From: Clostridia bacterium
GTDB lineage: Bacteria; Bacillota; Clostridia; TANB77; CAG-508
DNA length: 64,000 bases
Assembly (NCBI GenBank): GCA_017515985.1
Contig: JAFWDV010000018.1
Location: 39,091 to 103,090 of the forward strand
Direction: 5' to 3'
In this document: piece by piece, positions 5,842 through 54,774 of the stretch
Layout of the letters: every line of letters begins with the position of its first letter
Numbering within the stretch: the stretch's first letter is position 1
Position numbers and translations under genes: made by a program
The notes under the pieces: model-generated
The model's database searches: none
What the model was told of the DNA's origin: nothing
The model's input: only the letters and a program-made list of their open reading frames with translations

Positions 5842-6051
5842 TTAATCAGGATAGTTAAGCTCGAGTTGCTGGAGCAGGACAAAAAAGTGTCCGCCCCGGT
5901 ACCCCGTGTAGCTTGTGATCTGAGGTGGAAATACCGTCTTGACGATGACCCCCTCCTCGGTGCACTCGTTCATAAACTGGTTTACAGTTTTGTCGAGTGT
6001 CCGCGCAAGTGCTGCAACGTCTGCGCCTTTGACTACGAATGTTTCCAACAT
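5842..6051 (-). CDS. Small GC-rich protein, paralog 1 (69 aa, ends ...LELNYPD); function unknown
   Basis: RBS AAAGGAGAGG 5 nt upstream of the ATG. Own terminator. Paralogous to the ORF at 6842-7054. G+C is much higher than in flanking genes. Confidence 0.6.
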   Translation of the reverse strand: MLETFVVKGADVAALARTLDKTVNQFMNECTEEGVIVKTVFPPQITSYTGYRGGHFFVLLQQLELNYPD

Positions 6052-6157
6052 AATGACCTCTCCTTTGGTTTATTTTCCCTGTGATGGGAATGGTGAGCGC
6101 ATGCTCAACCTTCTGTTATTATACCATATTATGTCAATTAATGCAAATGCTTTTGCA

Positions 6158-6200
6158 AAAAAGGGCCCCCGGCATGTGCCGAGGGCTCCCTGCGGTTTTT
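6158..6200. terminator. GC-rich hairpin with A-run/T-run flanks, downstream of the 149-aa ORF
   Basis: GGGCCCCCGGCA...GCCGAGGGCTCCC imperfect stem, then a T9 run. Confidence 0.4.
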
Positions 6201-6206
6201 TTTTAT

Positions 6207-6656
6207 TTAGATTTTGCTATCGGAATTTTTGGCGTAAATTACAGTCATATCAGTATCGACTGTAACACCAATATCCCAGCCGTACTGGTTGAGAAAATGG
6301 CGAAGTGGCTTGGTAAGAAATGCAGTCTCGTAGGCTGACGAGAAAGGTTTTAACGCCTTCTCTTTACCAAAAAACAGCTGTGGTGTGTGAAAATTTTGAT
6401 TGATATAAAGCAAATAATCATCAACATCAAGCTTTTCGGTGCCAGTCTGCGAAGGGCTAGGTACATAGAAACCACGTACTTCGCTTAAGTAGAATTTCTT
6501 ACACTGCTGGTTATCTCCTGTGATGTACGAGTACAGAAGTGCTCCATAACTGTCAAACAGGTCCTGTAAAGCAAATAAATGCCGTGCAGGAATGAGCTGA
6601 ACTTCTGCTCGTTCCACGTGTTTGGAAAAAAAACGCTTAGGTTCATAGAACTTCAC
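6207..6656 (-). CDS. GC-rich hypothetical protein (149 aa); no family recognised
   Basis: GTG start 7 nt after GGAGG. TTTACA-17-TATAAT promoter upstream. Lies between the two paralogous small ORFs. Confidence 0.55.
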   Translation of the reverse strand: MKFYEPKRFFSKHVERAEVQLIPARHLFALQDLFDSYGALLYSYITGDNQQCKKFYLSEVRGFYVPSPSQTGTEKLDVDDYLLYINQNFHTPQLFFGKEKALKPFSSAYETAFLTKPLRHFLNQYGWDIGVTVDTDMTVIYAKNSDSKI

Positions 6657-6787
6657 TTGAATTCCTCCAATCTTATCCGCAGGGTACCAAGGGTATGGTT
6701 AACCACTCAGTAATGAAATCAATTATAACATAATTAGATTACAATGTAAAGAAAAGTAGATCCTATAAGAACCGTCCCTCTCCATTC

Positions 6788-6828
6788 GAAAAAAGAAAGG
6801 CGCAAATGGTATTGCCATTTGCGCCTTT
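6788..6828 (-). terminator. Intrinsic terminator of islet-A paralog 2
   Basis: Perfect stem GGCGCAAATGG/CCATTTGCGCC followed on the minus strand by TTCTTTTTTCG. Confidence 0.6.
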
Positions 6829-6841
6829 CGTGCTCGAGAGA

Positions 6842-18087: not shown

Positions 18088-18135
18088 AAATTGGGGACGG
18101 AGGAAAAAATTTCTTCCGTCTCCAAAAATTTTTTC
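18088..18135. repeat. Palindromic GGGACGG intergenic repeat, copy 2
   Basis: TTGGGGACGGAGGAAAAAATTTCTTCCGTCTCCAAAAATT. Lies between the convergent pdp and dipeptidase genes. Confidence 0.65.
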
Positions 18136-20407: not shown

Positions 20408-20746
20408 TTACTTATTGAGATATTCTACATAACTTTCCCAGTCTTCTTTTTCTTCATCCGATAGCTCATCAAAAGCCTGTTCTGCTGTGATAAGTCTACC
20501 AGTATCGTTCAATACGTCCTCGCTGAAATAGTCGAGGTCGTCATATACGATACGTTTGTGGTTGGTAAGACCCTCAAGCTGCCGAGCTTCAATGACCTTT
20601 TCTTCAACTGTTTTTCCGCTGAGTTCATCAATGGAATCGACATTTCCTTTGTCAGCCAAATACAGTGTACTTCCAACGATAAGGTAGCCATTAAAAAAGC
20701 TGTCCATATCGCTGAGAAGTGTGTGCTTACCAGAAATCATACTCAT
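20408..20746 (-). CDS. GC-richer acidic hypothetical protein (112 aa; acidic C-terminus DELSDEEKEDWESYVEYLNK)
   Basis: ATG 9 nt after GAAAGGAAG. Consensus promoter upstream. G+C noticeably above the flanking genes. Confidence 0.55.
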   Translation of the reverse strand: MSMISGKHTLLSDMDSFFNGYLIVGSTLYLADKGNVDSIDELSGKTVEEKVIEARQLEGLTNHKRIVYDDLDYFSEDVLNDTGRLITAEQAFDELSDEEKEDWESYVEYLNK

Positions 20747-20814
20747 GGTAATCAACTTCCTTTCTCATAAGTCGAAAGTCGGATATTCTATCATACACTT
20801 TCGTGTAGAGCTAT

Positions 20815-39978: not shown

Positions 39979-40084
39979 ATTGAAAATTTGTTAAAAATAT
40001 GGTATAATTAATTAATCGCAAATATATGCGATGACCCTGGATTTTCTGGGGTGTAAAAAATGTGCCAAGGGAGGTGTTTTCACA

Positions 40085-40276
40085 ATGGCACGAAACAACA
40101 AGGCGCGGTCTAAAGCGCCGAGAAAAGGGATATTTAGCTCTTTCTTTGAAAAAATAAGACGAGCCAAATACCAGAAGAAGGCTCAGAAAGCTGCTCAAAA
40201 GGCTGCTCGCAAGGCCAGAAAGGCCAAAATTAGGCAGATAAAGCAGAAAGCAAATCTGAGACCTAAACGGTTCTAA
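40085..40276 (+). CDS. GC-rich, extremely basic small protein (63 aa, Lys/Arg/Ala-rich; N-terminus MARNNKARSKAPRKG)
   Basis: RBS AAGGGAGG 8 nt before the ATG. Promoter TTGAAA-17-TATAAT with the palindrome ATCGCAAATATATGCGAT after the -10. Own terminator. Confidence 0.55.
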   Translation: MARNNKARSKAPRKGIFSSFFEKIRRAKYQKKAQKAAQKAARKARKAKIRQIKQKANLRPKRF

Positions 40277-40282
40277 GCAAAG

Positions 40283-40314
40283 TTCGGGGGGCATTATACC
40301 TCCCGAATTTTTTT
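40283..40314 (+). terminator. Intrinsic terminator
   Basis: Stem TTCGGGGGG...CCTCCCGAA followed by T7. Confidence 0.55.
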
Positions 40315-40432
40315 GTAAAGGTTTACAATAATTTAGAAATATGTTATAATTAACTAATCTTGCAGATGCAGGATTTCCTGGATGGAGGGTCCACCAGGTA
40401 AAGCTTTAGTCAGTGCGAAAGGAGATGTTACT

Positions 40433-41059
40433 ATGGCACTGAGAAACAGAAAGGGGCAGGCTAATGCTCCGGAGGTCATCGTGTGTGACCAGAACGGCAA
40501 TCCGATGAATGGAAGAGAGCGGAAAAGAGTAAGCGAAATCGCCGAAAGTCTGCTTTTTGCATTGTTCAGAGCGGGGTCGTTCGCAAAGAGGCGGATTCAT
40601 CAGTGGTGGGAAGACTTGGCAAATCCCGCAAAGCTGAGGAAGACCGAAGAACAGTTGCAGAGAGAAGCGCTGATGCAGGCTAGATCGGAGATTTTCCTCT
40701 CGATTATTGGCGGTATTGCGATTGTGCTTTTCATCAAGAAGCTTCCTATTCTGATTGCAATTATGGGCATTTTAGAGCTGCTTTGTGTGCTTGTACACGC
40801 AGCAGTTGTCCGTGATGCAATTGCTAGAGGCGAAAACCTCAACAATGCAGAAAAGGAAATCTCTAAGGCAACTGCAAACCTCATGAGGGCATTCGTAATC
40901 AGCGTAGTGCTGGCAACGGTTTTTGCTGTCTGGATTCACAAGAATCCTGACATGGTAGCAGACATTCCGATGCTTAGCAAGTTTGCTGATTGGCAGATTG
41001 GCATTGTGAATGAGCTGTTTGAGAAAATCAGCAGTATTATCACGAAGGCCAAAAGCTAA
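40433..41059 (+). CDS. GC-rich polytopic membrane protein (208 aa) with an N-terminus paralogous to the preceding small protein (MALRNRKGQANAPEV)
   Basis: RBS AAAGGAGA 8 nt before the ATG. Promoter TTTACA-17-TATAAT plus the palindrome ATCTTGCAGATGCAGGAT. 3-4 hydrophobic helices. Terminator after the stop. Confidence 0.55.
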   Translation: MALRNRKGQANAPEVIVCDQNGNPMNGRERKRVSEIAESLLFALFRAGSFAKRRIHQWWEDLANPAKLRKTEEQLQREALMQARSEIFLSIIGGIAIVLFIKKLPILIAIMGILELLCVLVHAAVVRDAIARGENLNNAEKEISKATANLMRAFVISVVLATVFAVWIHKNPDMVADIPMLSKFADWQIGIVNELFEKISSIITKAKS

Positions 41060-41189
41060 CCGAATGAACTTGATGGGAAAAAGTCGGGGGACGCAAGTCC
41101 CTCGCTTTTTTTGTCGAATATACATGATAAAATCATTGACCAAATACCTTAATTTTGATACTATAACAAAAGCAAAAGGAGGTGAGAGC

Positions 41190-43436
41190 ATGATAGCAGA
41201 AATAATTATGAATAGTTCAGTTAGAAACTTGGACAGGACATTTGATTATAGTATTCCATTTGAGATGGAAGATAAGATTCATATTGGAAGCAGAGTTTTA
41301 GTTAAATTTGGAAATATAAAAGAATTAAAAGAAGGCTTTGTTGTTAATATAAAAGATAAATCTGATTTTGAAGTTAAAGATATTTCCAAAGTAGAAGAAA
41401 AAGATTTTATTGATGAAGCAAAAGTAAATCTTGCTAAATGGATGTCGAAACGCTATTTTTGCAATGTTTCAGATTGTATAAAGCTTATGCTCCCACCGGG
41501 GACGGGTACAAATAATATAGAAAATAGAGCTAAAGAAAAAACTGCACGATTTATACGTTTAGCGAAGTCTATTGACGAAATTGAATTTGATATTGAAAAT
41601 AAAAAAATAAAATCTGAAAAGCATATAAGGGCTCTTCGTATGCTTGACAAAATAAGCGATATTCCATCAAAGGAATTTGAAGAGCTTGCTGAGGTTACAT
41701 CTGCAATATTAAAAACGTTGGAGAAAAATGGCTACATAGAATTTTATGAGAATGCAGTTGAAAGAAATCCTTTTTTACACAAGGTGATAGCCTCGACAAA
41801 TAATCTAGAGCTAAATGAAGAGCAGCAAGCCGCATATACAGCAGTTGAAACTGCTTTAGATGATATGATGAATTCAGAATTTTTGTTATTTGGCGTAACT
41901 GGATCTGGAAAAACAGAAGTATATTTACAGCTGATAGAAAAAGTATTAAACATGGGAAAAACAAGTGTAATGCTTGTACCTGAAATTTCTTTAACGCCTC
42001 AAACTGTTGATAGATTCATTAGCAGATTTGGCCAAGAAAAAATTGCTGTTTTACACAGTAAATTATCTGTTGGCGAAAGGTATGATCAGTGGTATAAAAT
42101 AAAAAATGGTGAAGCTAAAATTGTGATAGGTGCAAGGTCTGCTATGTTTGCTCCGATAAATGATTTGGGAATTGTGATAATCGATGAGGAACATGATAGT
42201 TCATATAAGTCTGAAACTACGCCTAGATACAACGTTAAAGACGTGGCTAGATATTTAGCAAAAGAATATAGTGTGCCTATCGTTTTTGGAAGCGCGACAC
42301 CAAGTATGGATACATATTATAAAGCTCAAAATGGAGATATTGAACTATTGGAGCTATCTAAAAGGGCTAATGACGCGAGCCTTCCAGATATTAATATTGT
42401 AGATATGAGGGCAGAGCTTGCAAACGGAAATAGAACATCGATAAGCATGAGCCTTTATAACAAAATTAAACAAAATATACATGATAAAAAACAAACAATT
42501 CTATTTTTAAATAGAAGAGGCTATTCTACATTTATAATGTGCAGAGATTGTGGATATGTAGCTAAGTGCAGACACTGTAATATTGCATTAACATACCACA
42601 GCAGGGAAAACAAATTGAGATGTCATTATTGTGGTTATGAAACAGCACCATTTAATAGGTGTCCTGAATGCGATAGTATAAATATAAAGTATTCTGGAAG
42701 CGGTACTCAAAAGCTTGAAGAAGAAATAAATAAAATTTTTCCAATGGCGAAAACAATTAGAATGGACGTTGATACGGTAAGTAAAAAGAATTCTCATGAA
42801 GACATTATTAATAAATTTAAAAATGAGAACATTGACATTTTAATTGGAACCCAAATGGTTGTGAAAGGACATCATTTTCCTAATGTAACACTTGTTGGTG
42901 TAATATTTGCTGATGGTAGCTTGAATATTGATGATTATAGAGCAAATGAAAGAACTTTTCAAATATTAACGCAGGTTGCAGGTAGAGCTGGAAGAGAAAA
43001 AGATAAGGGAAGTGTTATTATTCAAACTTATAATCCTGATAACCTTGCGATAGAGTATTCAAAAGAGCAAAATTATAAAGTGTTTTATGATACGGAGATT
43101 AAGATAAGGAAACAATTGAAATATCCTCCTTTCTGTGATATAATACTAATCGGATTTAATTCGGAAAATGAGAATCATGTCATAGATTCAGCAAAATTTG
43201 TTTATAAAGCTTTGAGAGATAAGATAATAAATGAAAAATTACAAATAATTCTTTATAAGCCGGTACCTGCTCCCGTAGACAGAATTAAGAATAAGTTTAG
43301 ATGGAGGGTTATCGTTAAGTGTAAGTTTGATGATAAGATAATAGATGCTTTGAAATCAGTTACAGAATGTTATAATGAGCAAGGCGTAAAGGATGTAAAG
43401 ATATCTATCGATGTGAATCCTACAAATATGATGTAA
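41190..43436 (+). CDS. priA: Primosomal protein N' (replication restart helicase PriA)
   Basis: Walker A GVTGSGKT. DEEH. Cys4 zinc ribbons CRDCG...CRHC and CHYCG...CPEC. Start at MIAEII, after AAAGGAGG. Confidence 0.85.
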   Translation: MIAEIIMNSSVRNLDRTFDYSIPFEMEDKIHIGSRVLVKFGNIKELKEGFVVNIKDKSDFEVKDISKVEEKDFIDEAKVNLAKWMSKRYFCNVSDCIKLMLPPGTGTNNIENRAKEKTARFIRLAKSIDEIEFDIENKKIKSEKHIRALRMLDKISDIPSKEFEELAEVTSAILKTLEKNGYIEFYENAVERNPFLHKVIASTNNLELNEEQQAAYTAVETALDDMMNSEFLLFGVTGSGKTEVYLQLIEKVLNMGKTSVMLVPEISLTPQTVDRFISRFGQEKIAVLHSKLSVGERYDQWYKIKNGEAKIVIGARSAMFAPINDLGIVIIDEEHDSSYKSETTPRYNVKDVARYLAKEYSVPIVFGSATPSMDTYYKAQNGDIELLELSKRANDASLPDINIVDMRAELANGNRTSISMSLYNKIKQNIHDKKQTILFLNRRGYSTFIMCRDCGYVAKCRHCNIALTYHSRENKLRCHYCGYETAPFNRCPECDSINIKYSGSGTQKLEEEINKIFPMAKTIRMDVDTVSKKNSHEDIINKFKNENIDILIGTQMVVKGHHFPNVTLVGVIFADGSLNIDDYRANERTFQILTQVAGRAGREKDKGSVIIQTYNPDNLAIEYSKEQNYKVFYDTEIKIRKQLKYPPFCDIILIGFNSENENHVIDSAKFVYKALRDKIINEKLQIILYKPVPAPVDRIKNKFRWRVIVKCKFDDKIIDALKSVTECYNEQGVKDVKISIDVNPTNMM

Positions 43437-43466
43437 AATATTAGATATAATTTATAGGGGGAAAAG

Positions 43467-43943
43467 ATGGCAATTAGAAATGTACGATTAGAAACAGATG
43501 AAATATTGCGAAAGAAATCAAGAGCTGTTGAAGTTGTAGATGATAAGTTAAGAGAGCTTATTGATGATATGATTGAAACAATGCATAAGTATGATGGTGT
43601 TGGCTTAGCTGCACCTCAGGTTGGTGTTTTAAAAAGGGTTGTTGTTATCGATTTATACGATGACCATGGACCATATGTTTTAATTAATCCTGAAATAATT
43701 AAGGAAAAGGGAGAGCAAGAAGTTGATGAGGGATGTTTAAGCTTTCCTAATAAATTTGCTAAGGTTATTAGACCTGAAGAAGTAACTGTTATAGCTCTCG
43801 ATAGAGATGGAAAAGAATTTAAATTAAAAGGCAAAGGATTACTTGCACAGGCTATAGCACACGAGGTTGATCATTTAAATGGAGTATTATTTGTTGACCT
43901 TATGATACCTGGAACTTTAGAAGTAATTACACCAGAAAAATAA
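43467..43943 (+). CDS. def: Peptide deformylase
   Basis: GVGLAAPQ, EGCLS and HEVDH motifs. Confidence 0.9.
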   Translation: MAIRNVRLETDEILRKKSRAVEVVDDKLRELIDDMIETMHKYDGVGLAAPQVGVLKRVVVIDLYDDHGPYVLINPEIIKEKGEQEVDEGCLSFPNKFAKVIRPEEVTVIALDRDGKEFKLKGKGLLAQAIAHEVDHLNGVLFVDLMIPGTLEVITPEK

Positions 43944-43993
43944 TTGGTTGTGTATTTTGTAAGCCAAAACAACGTTAACAAGGAGTGGTTGAG

Positions 43994-44977
43994 ATGAAGA
44001 TTTTATTCATGGGAACACCTGATTTTGCTCAGGAATCATTAAAATGCATATACGAAGCGGGGCATGAAATAATTGCGGTTGTAACTAACCCTGATAAGCC
44101 AAAAGGAAGAGGTATGAAGATGATTGCTTCTCCTGTAAAAGAATTTGCATTGGAAAAAAACATTAAAGTGTATCAACCTGAAAAGGTTAAGAAAAATGAA
44201 GAATTTATAAATGAGATTAAGAATCTTAACCCTGAGCTAATATGCGTTGTGGCATATGGTAAGATACTTCCAAAAGAAATACTAGATATTCCTAAATATG
44301 GATGTGTTAATGTTCATGGTTCATTACTCCCAAAATATAGAGGAGCAGCTCCTATTCAATGGGCAGTTTTAAATGGAGACAAAGTCACAGGTGTTACTAC
44401 AATGTACATGGCTGAAGGAATGGATACTGGAGATATGATTCTTAAACGTGAAGTTGAGATAGGTGAAGATGAAACTACTGGTGAACTTTGGGATAGACTT
44501 TCAAAAATTGGTGGTGAGCTATTGGTTGAAACTGTAAGACAGATAGAAGCGGGTACTGCACCAAGAATAAAACAAGGTGATGATTTTTCAATGGCTCCAA
44601 TGCTAAATAAGGAAATGGCAAAGATTGATTGGGAAAACAAATCTGCTGCAGAGATAAAAAATCTAGTAAGAGGTTTAAATCCAATTATGGGAGCCTATGC
44701 TTTATATGAAGGAAAGAAAATCAAATTTTGGAAAGTTGAAACATATTCTGATAATGAGATAATAGAAATGTTTCCAGATTTAAAGGAATATGAAGATAGA
44801 TTTAAAGATTTACCAGAAGGAACAATTTTATTTTCTGATAGTAAAACAGGATTATATATTAAAGCAAAAGATGGAAATATAAAGGTTTTGGAAATACAAG
44901 GTGAAAATGCTAAAAGAATGTCTGCAGAAGATTTCCTAAGAGGAACTTTCTTATGTGCAGGAATGTATTTTGAATAA
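43994..44977 (+). CDS. fmt: Methionyl-tRNA formyltransferase
   Basis: MKILFMGTPDFA...NVHGSLLPKYRGAAPIQ. Confidence 0.9.
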   Translation: MKILFMGTPDFAQESLKCIYEAGHEIIAVVTNPDKPKGRGMKMIASPVKEFALEKNIKVYQPEKVKKNEEFINEIKNLNPELICVVAYGKILPKEILDIPKYGCVNVHGSLLPKYRGAAPIQWAVLNGDKVTGVTTMYMAEGMDTGDMILKREVEIGEDETTGELWDRLSKIGGELLVETVRQIEAGTAPRIKQGDDFSMAPMLNKEMAKIDWENKSAAEIKNLVRGLNPIMGAYALYEGKKIKFWKVETYSDNEIIEMFPDLKEYEDRFKDLPEGTILFSDSKTGLYIKAKDGNIKVLEIQGENAKRMSAEDFLRGTFLCAGMYFE

Positions 44978-45023
44978 AATTTGGGGACGGACTCAATAAA
45001 AAAAGAGTTTGTCCATTTTTTTT
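44978..45023. repeat. Palindromic GGGACGG intergenic repeat, degenerate copy 4
   Basis: TTGGGGACGGACTCAATAAAAAAAGAGTTTGTCCATTTTTTTT. Confidence 0.5.
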
Positions 45024-45113
45024 GTTGCGGAAGATTTGTAAATGTGATAGAATTTCGAAAATCTTGTGTAGCATAATTCATTGATGTAATACAAAAATGA
45101 AGGAGGAATCTAT

Positions 45114-45833
45114 ATGAAAATATTACTTCCAAAGAGCGATATGATTTTAGAGGAGGGGGTATCGGAAATCAAAGACGGAAAGCTGTATCTGTATAAGAGC
45201 GGTGTTTTCAAGGAGACGATGTATAAACTTTCGTATATGATTTTCGGTGATGATGAATGCTATTACTGTCATCGGAAATTAAGGAAGGAACCATCCCAGA
45301 CCGAAAGAAAAAAATTTTTTTCACAGATTTCAATGGATCACGTTATTCCACAAGATTTTGGAGGACCAACAATTACTGATAATTTGCGACCGGCGTGCAC
45401 AGATTGCAATTCTGCAAAGGGCAACATGTTTGAAGATGAATTTCGTGAGTATCGAAAGATTCGTCAAAGAACAGCAAGTAAAGGAAAACAAGGAAGAGCT
45501 GAAAGACGTTTATTCAAAGAAAAAATCTTGCTAACCCAAGAGCTGCGGCGGTATGGGAATATTGCAAGCTTGCCAGCTGAATGGATTACGGAGGAGGAAA
45601 TCAAAAATGTATATGTAAATTTTTGGTTGACTCAGCCAAAGGGAAGTGCATATCAGTTGATGTTTGAATCTGTAAAAAAATATAACTACTTGATGGAGGT
45701 TGCAACTATAACAGGAAACGGTTTTCTGGTGGATGGATTTAATGCAGTTTTGATTTCTAAATACTACGAGGTTCCAATAAGAGCAATTATTTCGGAAAAT
45801 GTAATTTATTCAGGATTCCCAAATGAGCTATAG
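45114..45833 (+). CDS. HNH-endonuclease-domain protein (239 aa) with an uncharacterised C-terminal half; moderately GC-richer than the flanks
   Basis: CYYCHRKL...MDHVIPQDFGGPTITDNLRPACTDCNSAKGN is the CxxC...H...H...CxxC...N HNH signature. RBS AAGGAGGA. Confidence 0.7.
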   Translation: MKILLPKSDMILEEGVSEIKDGKLYLYKSGVFKETMYKLSYMIFGDDECYYCHRKLRKEPSQTERKKFFSQISMDHVIPQDFGGPTITDNLRPACTDCNSAKGNMFEDEFREYRKIRQRTASKGKQGRAERRLFKEKILLTQELRRYGNIASLPAEWITEEEIKNVYVNFWLTQPKGSAYQLMFESVKKYNYLMEVATITGNGFLVDGFNAVLISKYYEVPIRAIISENVIYSGFPNEL

Positions 45834-45890
45834 CTCAAGAGATGTATGAAAGGGAGGCATGATTTTTAAGTCGTGTCTCTCTTTTTTGCG

Positions 45891-45920
45891 AAAATTTTTT
45901 CCTCCGTCCCCAAAATTTCT
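45891..45920. repeat. GGGACGG repeat, half copy 5
   Basis: AAAATTTTTTCCTCCGTCCCCAAAATTTC. Confidence 0.5.
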
Positions 45921-45930
45921 AAAATAAGTA

Positions 45931-45959
45931 TTGACATTCCTATTTTTTGGATATAATAT
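45931..45959 (+). promoter_or_regulatory. Sigma-A promoter of the hrcA-dnaK operon (TTGACA ... TATAAT/TAATAT)
   Basis: TTGACATTCCTATTTTTTGGATATAATAT immediately upstream of CIRCE. Confidence 0.55.
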
Positions 45960-45968
45960 ATACACAGT

Positions 45969-45995
45969 TTAGCACTCAAAGAGAAAGACTGCTAA
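45969..45995 (+). promoter_or_regulatory. CIRCE operator (HrcA binding site)
   Basis: TTAGCACTC-N9-GACTGCTAA, one mismatch from the consensus TTAGCACTC-N9-GAGTGCTAA. Confidence 0.75.
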
Positions 45996-46012
45996 AAAAG
46001 AAGGTGAAAAAG

Positions 46013-47017
46013 TTGTTGGATGACAGAAAAAAACGTATTTTACAAGCGATAGTTGATGAATATGTAAATACAGCAGAGCCTGTAAGTTCTGGTAGTATTT
46101 CTAAAAAGAAAGGTTTAGATTTTAGTAGTGCTACAATAAGAAATGAAATGTCTGAGCTTGAAAAAAGCGGGTATTTGGAAAAAACGCATACATCAAGTGG
46201 ACGTGTTCCATCTGCCAAAGGATATAGAATGTATGTGGATGAACTGTTAAAAGAAGACAATATTAGTTTAGATGAAATTAAATTTATAAAAGAAAAATTG
46301 CAGACGAAAGTGAATCAGATAGAGGATTTGATGAAAATTGCTACAAATACTTTGTCAGAAGTTACACATTATACTACGGTTGCAATTGGTCCTAAGGTAA
46401 CAAAGCAAATCATACAAGAGATTAAATTTGTTTTATTAGGAAATAGAATGCTAATGGCTGTAATACTTACAAATACTGGAATGGTAAGGGAAACAATAAT
46501 TAATTTTGAAGAAGACATTTATGAAGATCAAATTCAAACTATTAACGTTCTATTTAATAGTAAATTAAAAGGAAAACCGTTCGATAGCATAAATGAACCA
46601 TTGGAAGATTTTATTTTCACCGAGATGGAATCAAGTGCAAATATGATAAAAACAATTATTGAGCAACTGAATAAAGTAATATATGAAGAATCTAAACTTT
46701 ATTTAGAAGGAACCAATAAATCCTTTGAACTTCCGGAGCTTGAAAAAGCTGAAACAGCTAAGAACTTTATAAATATTTTAGAAAATAAAGCTGAAGTTGT
46801 TGATTTACTAGATAATGAGATTTCAAAAGACATAAGTGTATATATTGGCGATGAACTTGACGATGAAAATCTTAAGGATTTTAGCATAATTACACTTAAA
46901 GGTGAAGGCAAAGGAATGGGAACTATAGGTATAATCGGACCTAAAAGAATGAATTATTCTAAAGTTATTTCAGTTATGAGATATATTCAGAAATTAATAG
47001 ATGAAGGAGGGTTATAA
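46013..47017 (+). CDS. hrcA: Heat-inducible transcription repressor HrcA
   Basis: RKKRILQAIVDEYV...; TTG start after AAGGTGA, downstream of CIRCE. The track ORF starting at 45947 overlaps the promoter and CIRCE. Confidence 0.8.
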   Translation: MLDDRKKRILQAIVDEYVNTAEPVSSGSISKKKGLDFSSATIRNEMSELEKSGYLEKTHTSSGRVPSAKGYRMYVDELLKEDNISLDEIKFIKEKLQTKVNQIEDLMKIATNTLSEVTHYTTVAIGPKVTKQIIQEIKFVLLGNRMLMAVILTNTGMVRETIINFEEDIYEDQIQTINVLFNSKLKGKPFDSINEPLEDFIFTEMESSANMIKTIIEQLNKVIYEESKLYLEGTNKSFELPELEKAETAKNFINILENKAEVVDLLDNEISKDISVYIGDELDDENLKDFSIITLKGEGKGMGTIGIIGPKRMNYSKVISVMRYIQKLIDEGGL

Positions 47018-47538
47018 TGGACGAATTAGATCAAGATAAGGACATCGAGCTTGATGAAGAAAGTGCTGAAATACAGAAGCAAGAGCTTGAAAAGATAAAG
47101 GTTCTTATCGAAACACAAAAGCAAGAAATAGAAGAAAAAGATGATAGAATAAAAAGATTAATGGCTGAGTTTGAAAATTTCAAAAAAAGAAGCAGCAAAG
47201 AAAGAGAGAATCTATATGGCTCTATAATGGGTGATGTTATAACATCATTTTTGCCAATATTAGATAACTTAGAAAAAGCTGTTCAAACTAAAACTGCAGA
47301 TGAGGAATATAGACAAGGAATTGAAATGGTTTTAAAACAATTAAAAGATGTTTTAGAATCAAATGGTGTAAAAGAAATCGAATCTGTGGGAAAAACTTTT
47401 AATCCTGAATTACATGAAGCAATTACGTCAGTTACTGATGATAGCTTAGGAGTTCAAGAAATAAAGGAAGAATACAGAAAAGGATATATGATAGGAGATA
47501 AGGTTATAAGACATTCTCTTGTTGTAGTTGCAAATTAG
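47017..47538 (+). CDS. grpE: Nucleotide exchange factor GrpE
   Basis: Coiled-coil N-terminus, LMAEFENFKKR... Confidence 0.85.
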   Translation: MDELDQDKDIELDEESAEIQKQELEKIKVLIETQKQEIEEKDDRIKRLMAEFENFKKRSSKERENLYGSIMGDVITSFLPILDNLEKAVQTKTADEEYRQGIEMVLKQLKDVLESNGVKEIESVGKTFNPELHEAITSVTDDSLGVQEIKEEYRKGYMIGDKVIRHSLVVVAN

Positions 47539-47659
47539 TTATTACCTAATAGTTTTCTATTAGCTGATATAAAAACAAAAGAAAAGTAAAAATTAGTAGT
47601 AGACAACAAATATATGGGATATACTCAAAAATTAAGCATATATAATAAACTTAAAAAAT

Positions 47660-47678
47660 GAGTCCGTCCCCAAATTTA
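47660..47678. repeat. GGGACGG repeat, half copy 6
   Basis: GAGTCCGTCCCCAAATTT. Confidence 0.4.
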
Positions 47679-47679
47679 A

Positions 47680-49548
<1,869 letters not shown>

Positions 49549-49568
49549 TAATGTAAGGAAGTGGGACT

Positions 49569-49612
49569 CATAAGGGACATCTCTAAGTAAGTCCCACTTT
49601 TTAAAATAATAC
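49569..49612 (+). terminator. Hairpin terminator/attenuator between dnaK and dnaJ
   Basis: Stem AGTGGGACT...AGTCCCACT followed by T5. Confidence 0.5.
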
Positions 49613-49631
49613 ATAGAAAGGAATTGTTTAA

Positions 49632-50777
49632 ATGTCACAGAAAAGAGATTATTATGAAGTACTTGGAGTAAGCAAAACAGCAACTGATGATGAATTAAAG
49701 AAGGCATTTAGAAAGTTGGCTAAACAATACCATCCAGATGCTAATCCAGATAATAAGGAAGAAGCTGAAAAGAAATTCAAAGAAATAAACGAAGCATATG
49801 AGACATTATCAGATCCTCAAAAAAGAAAAATGTATGACCAATTTGGTCCTGATGGTCCAGCAGGTTTCGGTGGTGGAAACGCTGGTGGCTATTACTCATC
49901 AGGTTTTGAAGGGTTCTCAGATTTTGGTGACCTAGGCGATATATTCTCTTCATTCTTCGGAGGAGGTTTTGGAGGAAGAAGTTCAAGAAGAAGTAATAAC
50001 GGACCTGTTAGAGGTGCGGATATAAAAAATGTTATTGAGATTTCTTTTGAAGATGCATTCTTGGGAGTAGAAAAAGAAGTTGTTATTACAAGAAGTGAAA
50101 CGTGTACAACATGTGGAGGTAATGGCGCAAAACCTGGAACGGTAATAGATAAATGTACAGTTTGTAATGGAACAGGTCAAGTTAGACAGATTCAAAATAC
50201 TATACTTGGACAAATGCAAACAACTAGAACCTGTGGTACATGTAATGGTACAGGAAAAGTTATTAAGCAACCTTGCGATATTTGTAAGGGTAAAGGAAAA
50301 ATAAGAAAACAGGCTAGAATTAAAGTTAAAATTCCTGCTGGAATAGATGATAACCAGACAATAGTATTACGTGGCGAGGGTGAATCAGGCTCAAGAGGCG
50401 GAGCAAAAGGTGATTTATATATTGTTGTTAGAGTTAAGAGACATAGTATTTTTACTAGAAATGGAAATGATGTAAACTGTGTGGTTCCAATAACATTTAC
50501 TCAAGCAACACTTGGTGCAGATTTGGAAATACCAATGGTTGATGGAACAAAGGAAATATATAGAGTTCCTGAAGGAACACAAACTGGATCTAAATTCACT
50601 ATTAAAGCAAAAGGATTCAAGAGCGTTAATTCTTCAAGTCAGGGAAATTTTGTATTTACTGTTCAAGTCCAAGTTCCTAAACATTTAACTAAGGAACAAC
50701 GCGATTTGCTAACACAATTAGCTAAAACAATGAATGAGCAACCACCTATTAAGAAAAAGAATATATTTGGATTTTAA
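49632..50777 (+). CDS. dnaJ: Chaperone DnaJ
   Basis: J-domain HPD. G/F region. Four CxxCxGxG zinc fingers. Confidence 0.9.
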
Positions 50778-54730: not shown

Positions 54731-54774
54731 ATTTTGGGGACGGAGGAAAAAATTTTCCTCTGTCCTCAAAATTT
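54731..54774. repeat. Palindromic GGGACGG intergenic repeat, copy 7
   Basis: ATTTTGGGGACGGAGGAAAAAATTTTCCTCTGTCCTCAAAATTT. Lies between convergent genes. Confidence 0.65.

Follow-up and report, generated by a model that had tools for sequence, protein, structure and literature searches.

The subject of this analysis is a single gene in a 64,000-nucleotide stretch of a Clostridia bacterium genome (GenBank assembly GCA_017515985.1, contig JAFWDV010000018.1, positions 39,091 to 103,090), referred to below as the window. At positions 45114..45833 of the plus strand the window carries an intact open reading frame (ORF) with an ATG start that encodes a protein of 239 aa, in which the motifs CYYCH, DHVIPQDFGGP and NLRPACTDCNSAKGN can all be read. 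A sequence-only reading of this DNA had described it as a stand-alone HNH nuclease ORF of that length with a full HNH signature, a description borne out by ORF reading and by Pfam. The neighbours of the HNH gene are priA-def-fmt on the upstream side and hrcA-grpE-dnaK-dnaJ downstream, and our comparison of related genomes reveals an old occupant of the fmt|hrcA spacer of the genus, long established ahead of the heat-shock operon in most related species, and not a recent insertion. The features of the gene, its product and its surroundings are as follows (L-numbers, here and below, are handles for loci of other genomes):

44985..45023, plus strand: intrinsic terminator of fmt, a stem GGACGGACUC/GAGUUUGUCC that includes two G-U pairs, then a U-run (-14.2 kcal/mol, z=-3.3)
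45025..45053, plus strand: putative sigma-A-type promoter of the HNH gene, read from the sequence
45100..45106, plus strand: ribosome-binding site AAGGAGG of the HNH gene, read from the sequence, 7 nt ahead of the ATG and kept in L010 and L109
45114..45833, plus strand: complete ORF of the predicted HNH-ParB/Srx-fold nuclease (P0001), 239 aa
45114..45248, plus strand: N-terminal module, aa 1-45, of three short beta strands and one helix; family-specific, with L5, L24, M36, Y41 and G45 invariant
45249..45431, plus strand: HNH (beta-beta-alpha-Me) nuclease domain, aa 46-106, with a CxxC...CxxC zinc site (C49, C52, C95, C98)
45432..45551, plus strand: long helical hairpin, aa 107-146 (helices 107-120 and 124-146), from model and alignment
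45552..45818, plus strand: predicted degenerate ParB/Srx-fold domain, aa 147-235, with W157, Y180, D207-G208-F209 and N229 invariant in 27 members
45848..45887, plus strand: intrinsic terminator of the HNH gene, with a stem of 17 bp and UUUUUU after it (-21.2 kcal/mol, z=-6.7)
45903..45918, minus strand: right copy of the GGGGACGG repeat, a half-palindrome (GGGGACGGAGGAAAAAATTTT on the minus strand) of a repeat dispersed in the genus
45931-45936, plus strand: TTGACA of the hrcA promoter, from a promoter scan
45968-45994, plus strand: CIRCE (controlling inverted repeat of chaperone expression) operator TTAGCACTC-N9-GACTGCTAA, read from the sequence; together with the hrcA promoter it spans 45931..45994

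By profile, catalytic residues and fold, the protein is a member of the HNH / His-Me finger superfamily. The Pfam family HNH (PF01844) matches aa 49-104 with 42.1 bits against a cutoff of 21.4, and HNH_5 (PF14279) scores 41.5 bits against 27.5. The domain shows the beta-beta-alpha-Me fold and the Cas9-type catalytic set D75-H76, N90 and N99; in the 27-homolog alignment C49, C52, H76, N90, C95, C98, N99 and N104 never vary and D75 shows at least 90% conservation. The best sequence match in the PDB is GmeHNH (4h9d, E=9.4e-10), the best structural matches are HNH domains of Cas9, and the best PHROG match is annotated 'endonuclease VII' (E=5e-17). PADLOC returned weak, HNH-level matches to PtuB (E>=3e-4) and REase_II. 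The protein may be expected to be an active metal-dependent DNA endonuclease, whose N-terminal half would work as a zinc-stabilised HNH of the Cas9/McrA/GmeHNH type, with H76 as general base and D75 and N99 as metal ligands. The core DH...N...CxxC-N is common to GmeHNH (4H9D), the small HNH_5/McrA nucleases and the HNH domains of Cas9 and IscB; GmeHNH and its kin are single-domain proteins and the Cas9 and IscB domains are parts of RNA-guided enzymes, whereas the present protein adds an N-terminal module, the hairpin and the ParB/Srx fold. An RNA-guided nuclease of the IscB/Cas9 kind was considered and rejected, as the NCBIfam scores lie far under their cutoffs (guided_IscB, 25.8 bits against 175; Cas9d, 20.4 against 375), there is no RuvC domain, and positions 40000-50000 hold no Rfam match.

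The C-terminal half of about 110 aa had been called unrecognised, which is fair at the level of sequence: residues past about position 130 have no coverage in Pfam, NCBIfam, PHROGs or PADLOC, the half has no PDB sequence match, and Pfam searches with the threshold relaxed to E=10 and a search of the PDB by profile brought up chance matches alone, e.g., RSV NS2 and FliL. An AlphaFold2 model built with the family alignment (pLDDT 94.1, pTM 0.88) consists of four parts, namely a beta/alpha N-terminal module, the HNH core, a helical hairpin and an alpha/beta C-terminal domain. The hairpin ends with a conserved E143-x-R145-R146-x-G148, in which E143, R145, R146 and G148 are each found in at least 90% of the 27 members. 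For the C-terminal domain, the fold matches were the ParB N-terminal domain of pNOB8 (score 7.1), Arabidopsis sulfiredoxin (6.4), SbnI (5.6), KorB (5.5), the free serine kinase SerK (5.5), human sulfiredoxin (5.5), PadC (5.1), Atu1540 (4.4) and Spo0J (3.8), and unrelated folds begin in the same match list at a score of 3.2. As modelled, the half that had gone unrecognised is a helical linker followed by a ParB/Srx-fold domain.

The ParB/Srx fold is present in the model, but the tests by sequence profile and by the GxxR motif failed, and the domain should not be filed as a ParB-CTPase. With 18 C-terminal segments of the family and with the family profile, no match to ParBc (PF02195) was obtained up to E=10, nor to any ParB sequence in the PDB. 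The arginine of the Box II P-motif GxxR is absent: the corresponding stretch reads G208-F-N-A in this protein and D207-G208-F209-(N/I/V/L/Y)-x-x across the family, and position G+3 of the DGF motif bears an arginine or any other basic residue in 0 of the 27 sequences. In the parts of a 2025 survey of ParB-fold proteins drawn on here (PMC12704722), this arginine is given as a requirement for the binding of nucleoside triphosphate (NTP) by the ParB fold. Because it has been lost, the C-terminal domain is more probably not an NTPase, and we infer that it more probably serves as a module for DNA or ligand contact or for dimerisation than as an NTP switch.

The same parts of the survey note bacterial fusions of the ParB-CTPase fold with HNH (PF01844), which are described as new and unexplored (PMC12704722). 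These uncharacterised fusions, as far as that portion of the survey presents them, resemble the present family in joining the ParB/Srx fold and HNH in one bacterial polypeptide, and they differ from it in having been found through the ParB-CTPase signature including GxxR, while the present family has neither a ParBc match nor the GxxR arginine. In the present family HNH comes first and the ParB-like domain last. On the strength of the model, the family can be regarded as a cryptic, motif-less relative of the ParB-CTPase-HNH fusions.

A search of 5.8 billion proteins retrieved 31 full-length homologs of 214-251 aa, and an exhaustive profile search of 1.84 billion representatives retrieved 201 at E<1e-10 (about 200 clusters at 50% identity), nearly all of them about 210-250 aa long and matching from end to end, so that the family is compact, with a single architecture; 27 members make up the family alignment. 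In a GTDB scan with one genome per species, the family was found in 43 species, at one locus each and each from a different assembly. All 43 are uncultured Clostridia represented by metagenome-assembled genomes (MAGs) from rumen, rabbit, human and other guts, with Clostridium sp. CAG:571, CAG:575 and Candidatus Scatovivens among the hosts. The gene is intact in 42 of the 43. The exception, L057 (a rabbit-gut MAG, about 5980-6620), has a single in-frame stop (...FLDSS*RGKKY...) and is otherwise full length, which may point to a gene that began to decay recently or to a fault of the assembly. Searches of IMG/VR, INPHARED (50,697 phage records) and PLSDB (72,556 plasmid records) brought up no full-length relative; phage and plasmid matches are limited to the HNH domain, with a coverage of the query of 44% at most, and matches in BFVD are likewise restricted to that domain. 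The family is uncharacterised, and its hosts all belong to a lineage of uncultured Clostridia of gut and rumen.

In at least six further lineages of species rank, homologs immediately precede hrcA-grpE-dnaK, and they follow priA-def-fmt wherever the contig extends so far. Their identity to the protein of the window is 71% in L109, 61% in L007, 61% in L010, 54% in L021, 52% in L022 and 38% in L031. This recurrence contradicts the sequence-only reading, according to which the position next to the heat-shock operon lacks conservation, and syntenic presence across the genus, which that reading had named as the observation to speak against it, is largely what these six orthologs provide. The spacer holds other genes as well. 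Between fmt and the HNH gene, a Thg1-like gene (tRNA-His guanylyltransferase family) lies on the opposite strand and divergent from it in L007, L010, L021 and L022, and further occupants are found in L010 and L031:

L007, 4076-4750, minus strand: Thg1-like gene
L010, 4054-4737, minus strand: Thg1-like gene
L022, 5059-5739, minus strand: Thg1-like gene
L010, 2928-3560: 210-aa ORF of unknown kind, between fmt and the HNH gene
L031, 4961-5662: gene for a DUF6882 protein, between fmt and the HNH gene

Empty sites were sought by scanning metagenomes with HrcA. In a sister clade (L068, L069, L071-L078, L089, L090, L093) whose hrcA is 86-90% and dnaK 94% identical to those of the window, the fmt-hrcA gap measures about 270 bp and contains no HNH gene; a search of six-frame translations of the empty spacers with the hidden Markov model of the family found no relic of one. 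In L070 (1030-3315) the site is occupied instead by a gene for a 761-aa protein of GYD(K/R)(E/D)GYD repeats that has no Pfam match. The comparison of presence and absence at this site, which had been proposed as a check on the gene, therefore supports a plastic site, given the empty clade and the other cargo in L070, and at the same time shows a position that recurs in six species. As a separate observation, L073 (3-734) agrees with L068 and L072 in hrcA (100%) and grpE (99-100%), yet identity to these two drops to about 67% in the priA fragment and to 79% in fmt, as if recombination had left a breakpoint or a mosaic close to the fmt|hrcA hotspot.

Across the loci upstream of hrcA, HNH identities of 36-71% contrast with 75-88% for fmt, 81-93% for hrcA and 95-97% for dnaK, and the HNH gene changes at about 2-3 times the rate of fmt or hrcA. 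Between L007 and L022 fmt is 88% and hrcA 93% identical but HNH only 52%, and between the window and L031 fmt is 85% identical yet HNH about 38-39%. Such discordance suggests that alleles have been replaced at the hotspot or that rates differ greatly. The spacer between fmt and hrcA is a hotspot of variable cargo, of which the HNH gene is the commonest and, judging by divergence, the oldest occupant.

More distant homologs, of 29-55% identity, occupy about nine other positions among housekeeping genes: after cysS; divergent from ruvA-ruvB; after nrdD-nrdG, facing a murT-like gene; between spoIIGA and sigE, 42 nt past spoIIGA; two genes upstream of der; facing leuS; between a radical-SAM gene and an M23 peptidase gene; between genes for a DacB-like peptidase and spoVS; and beside a gene of the metalloenzyme superfamily (PF01676), near an ABC-2 transporter gene. 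About 10 contexts were compared and not one neighbour gene was common to different contexts, hence there is no conserved partner gene, and a toxin-immunity pair, Septu (PtuA) and classical restriction-modification are excluded for lack of such a partner. Septu (PtuAB) and type II restriction-modification were also rejected on direct inspection, the neighbours being fmt, hrcA, cysS, ruvA, nrdG, the murT-like gene, spoIIGA, sigE, der and leuS, with no PtuA or methyltransferase. The polymorphic-toxin tip that the sequence-only reading had allowed as an option is excluded too, since a family-specific module takes the place of an N-terminal delivery region and no immunity gene is conserved in the roughly 10 contexts.

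In five context groups (nrdDG, spoIIGA, cysS, c28/c29 and c38) HNH identities track those of the flanking genes and define the same subclades, with Spearman coefficients of 0.6-0.99 against the best markers, which indicates vertical descent after each relocation; the gene appears to be inherited mainly vertically. The genes that flank the homologs elsewhere (cysS, ruvA, nrdD, spoIIGA, leuS, der and others) were sought for their empty state, and none lies inside the 64-kb window. The operon spoIIGA-sigE is widely conserved in sporulation, and in one clade it is interrupted by the HNH homolog: in L041, L043, L045, L046, L051, L052 and L059 (about 5900-6830 in each) the gene lies between spoIIGA and sigE on the same strand. 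In L026 a different HNH allele lineage stands just after sigE, one gene off the spoIIGA|sigE position.

The sequence-only reading had further noted that the ORF is moderately GC-richer than its neighbours, which holds true, though the excess is small. Its GC content is 0.371 against a mean of 0.327 over the 59 ORFs of the window (z=+1.0), and its GC content at third codon positions (GC3) is 0.350 against 0.227 (z=+1.5); with six GC-richer ORFs elsewhere in the window, the gene is no outlier. In each of the six species compared, GC3 is higher in the HNH gene than in its flanking genes. Copies from the same species on six other contigs are nucleotide-identical over the HNH ORF and are uninformative on purifying selection. 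The GC-richest ORF of the window is a 225-aa ORF at 40382-41059 (plus strand) just upstream of priA (GC 0.47, GC3 0.51, z=+3.1); it has a weak, sub-threshold match to DUF4064, was found solely in same-species loci, and looks compositionally far more foreign than the HNH gene. Four short ORFs, at 5939-6265 (plus strand), 6207-6656 (minus strand), 20408-20755 (minus strand) and 34912-35617 (plus strand), also have a high GC3 of 0.41-0.47 against the window mean of 0.23.

Copies of the GGGGACGG repeat flank the HNH gene at 44983-44990 (plus strand) and 45904-45911 (minus strand), and with their surroundings form a 16-nt inverted repeat AAAATTTGGGGACGGA / TCCGTCCCCAAAATTT that is 94% complementary. 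The window contains 7 copies of the 8-mer where 0.18 are expected, and those away from the right flank of the HNH gene are these:

18091-18125 and 54734-54768: complete copies, perfect palindromic hairpins of about 35 nt between convergent genes (-25 and -29 kcal/mol), probably bidirectional terminators
36253-36260: half-site
41498-41505: half-site inside priA
44976-44991: half-site left of the HNH gene
47664-47671, minus strand: half-site

The half-sites fall into two subtypes (...GGAGGAAAAAATTT and ...GGACTCA). The left copy beside the HNH gene is the fmt terminator itself, the terminator at 44985..45023 overlapping both the 8-mer at 44983-44990 and the inverted-repeat arm at 44976-44991; it belongs to the GGGGACGGACTCA subtype, which is also present at two other sites that have no HNH gene. 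In L010 the motif occurs in def|fmt and grpE|dnaK, the latter position matching 47664 of the window, and is not found around the HNH gene. Among 24 loci covering all contexts, no inverted repeat recurs around the cassette. Insertion of the HNH gene into a split GGGGACGG palindrome was rejected on these grounds, that is, the left-copy subtype at two HNH-less sites and relatives without the motif around the gene. The repeat looks like a dispersed feature of the genus, similar to repetitive extragenic palindromes, and not like the ends of an element; the two GGGACGG copies that had been reported on either side of the ORF are indeed there, yet as element ends they do not hold, being dispersed and missing around the gene in L010.

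The HNH gene looks monocistronic, with its own predicted promoter, ribosome-binding site and terminator. The putative promoter that would drive it comprises a -35 element TTGCGG (45025-45030), a 17-nt spacer and a TG-extended -10 element TAGAAT (45048-45053; TGaTAGAAT), and the layout TTGCnn-17-TA(G/A)AAT also occurs upstream of the orthologs in L007, L010 and L109. A simple scan for consensus promoters missed the element at 45025..45053, whose -35 matches at 4 of 6 positions. For the terminator of the HNH gene, 0 of 200 shuffled sequences fold equally well. Downstream, the annotated start of hrcA is at 46013 according to the gene call. The consensus of CIRCE is well established, and the operator at 45968-45994 departs from it by one mismatch in the right arm (GACTGCTAA in place of GAGTGCTAA). 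The same variant is seen in L007, L010 and L090, while in the L068 clade the mismatch sits in the left arm (TTAGCAGTC).

We read the gene as a long-resident, solitary accessory DNA endonuclease that combines HNH with a degenerate ParB fold and is engaged in DNA conflict, and assign to this reading a probability of about 0.45. Since there is no conserved partner gene, the nuclease must act alone, and in doing so it has to leave the chromosome of its host uncut. A narrower and more tentative proposal, made by analogy, is a restriction-like surveillance of foreign or modified DNA, in which the nuclease would make nicks or cuts in DNA that is foreign or carries chemical marks, by the logic of GmrSD, BrxU and SspE, a ParB-fold sensor being joined to a His-Me nuclease. 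The combination of folds, the fast evolution and the hotspot behaviour favour such a role. The type IV enzymes GmrSD, BrxU and SspE (a DUF262 ParB-like NTPase with a DUF1524 His-Me nuclease) share this pairing of ParB fold and His-Me finger, and GmrSD-type enzymes are described, in the portion of the source used here, as solitary and without a methyltransferase (PMC4619093). Compared with them, the present protein is about 2.5 times smaller, has the reversed domain order and has lost the NTP-binding motif; it has no Pfam match to DUF262 (DGQQR) or DUF1524 and no PADLOC match to GmrSD or BrxU, and its gene occurs in housekeeping contexts, not in defence islands. Several points weigh against an enzyme of DNA conflict. 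The neighbourhoods are made up of housekeeping genes with no defence islands, and the PADLOC match to PtuB is weak (E=3e-4). Mainly vertical inheritance with 42 of 43 copies intact would also suit a function in host maintenance, and the relocation of a single gene to about 10 unrelated spacers, together with the discordant alleles at fmt|hrcA, would also suit a selfish element. Finally, the [ED]-N that follows the last strand and the RR at the domain boundary, both conserved, leave room for ligand binding by the ParB-like domain.

The second of these possibilities, a free-standing selfish cassette that would act like a homing endonuclease, cutting HNH-less alleles, being copied in by repair and sometimes switching its target, is in our view unlikely. 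No better odds attach to its variant in which the degenerate ParB fold would serve for DNA recognition and at least nine hops into core-gene spacers would have been followed by vertical persistence. Such a cassette would explain a single-gene unit in about 10 unrelated spacers between highly conserved genes, e.g., spoIIGA|sigE, with no common neighbour, its presence or absence at fmt|hrcA among species with hrcA 86-90% identical, and the elevated GC3 in six of six species; two alleles 38% identical at one site where fmt is 85% identical, and the L026 allele lineage near spoIIGA|sigE, also agree with such a cassette. The concordance of gene trees is divided, the HNH gene being discordant in the hrcA group and concordant in the nrdDG, spoIIGA, cysS, c28/c29 and c38 groups, and this co-divergence with flanking genes in five groups speaks against repeated homing. 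So do the 42 intact copies out of 43, where homing cycles predict many decayed ones, the lack of remnants in the empty sites, the absence of the family from phages, plasmids, introns and inteins, the lack of NUMOD/IENR-type DNA-binding modules in Pfam searches and the lack of terminal repeats common across contexts. Free-standing HNH homing endonucleases are familiar from phages, for instance as the mob genes of T4. The HNH gene resembles these in being a single gene with its own expression signals between conserved genes, present or absent among relatives; unlike them it resides on a bacterial chromosome, is found in no phage collection searched, mostly co-diverges with its surroundings, is nearly always intact and carries another DNA-binding module. 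To our knowledge, single-gene selfish elements, well known in phages, have seldom been described from cellular chromosomes except in introns and inteins.

A lineage-specific host nuclease for DNA maintenance, acting in repair or recombination as a substitute Holliday-junction resolvase or in DNA processing linked to sporulation, appears similarly improbable. It would be consistent with one locus per assembly, mainly vertical inheritance, invariant catalytic residues and core-gene neighbourhoods, among them the positions divergent from ruvA-ruvB, 42 nt past spoIIGA, and beside spoVS and the DacB-like peptidase gene. The 'endonuclease VII' annotation of the best PHROG match (E=5e-17) points the same way, even though T4 endonuclease VII is outside the top 60 structural matches and Pfam Endonuclease_7 is unmatched. 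Stand-alone HNH proteins with roles in genome maintenance exist, HlpB of B. subtilis being an example given in the parts of the survey drawn on here (PMC12704722). A maintenance function is harder to reconcile with a whole close clade that lacks the gene at fmt|hrcA, with evolution about 2-3 times faster than that of fmt or hrcA, and with a narrow phyletic range in which no context is common to the clades.

The mild GC-richness, the 16-nt flanking inverted repeat and the weak PADLOC matches to PtuB and REase_II might have suggested that a defence-island effector, restriction enzyme or toxin tip bounded by GGGACGG repeats had recently been inserted by horizontal transfer. Such an event is essentially excluded by the orthologs that six or more species carry at this very site, by a repeat that is dispersed in the genus, absent around the HNH gene in relatives and not replaced by recurrent terminal repeats, and by the lack of an adjoining methyltransferase, PtuA ATPase, immunity gene or delivery domain in any context.

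The advance made here is modest and descriptive, and the protein is of a fairly ordinary kind, an HNH nuclease apparently fused to a ParB-fold domain, for which the evolutionary picture has been corrected. An annotation of the type 'HNH endonuclease, C-terminus unknown' can be replaced by a defined, predicted architecture of HNH, helical hairpin and ParB/Srx fold without GxxR. Combinations of the ParB fold with nucleases are of current interest as NTP-gated defence enzymes (GmrSD, BrxU, SspE), and a natural version without the nucleotide-binding arginine would reveal what the ParB fold is capable of when NTP is lacking. The fmt|hrcA locus, with its empty sites, divergent alleles and other cargo, represents a natural experiment that could separate maintenance of the gene for the benefit of the host from selfish maintenance.

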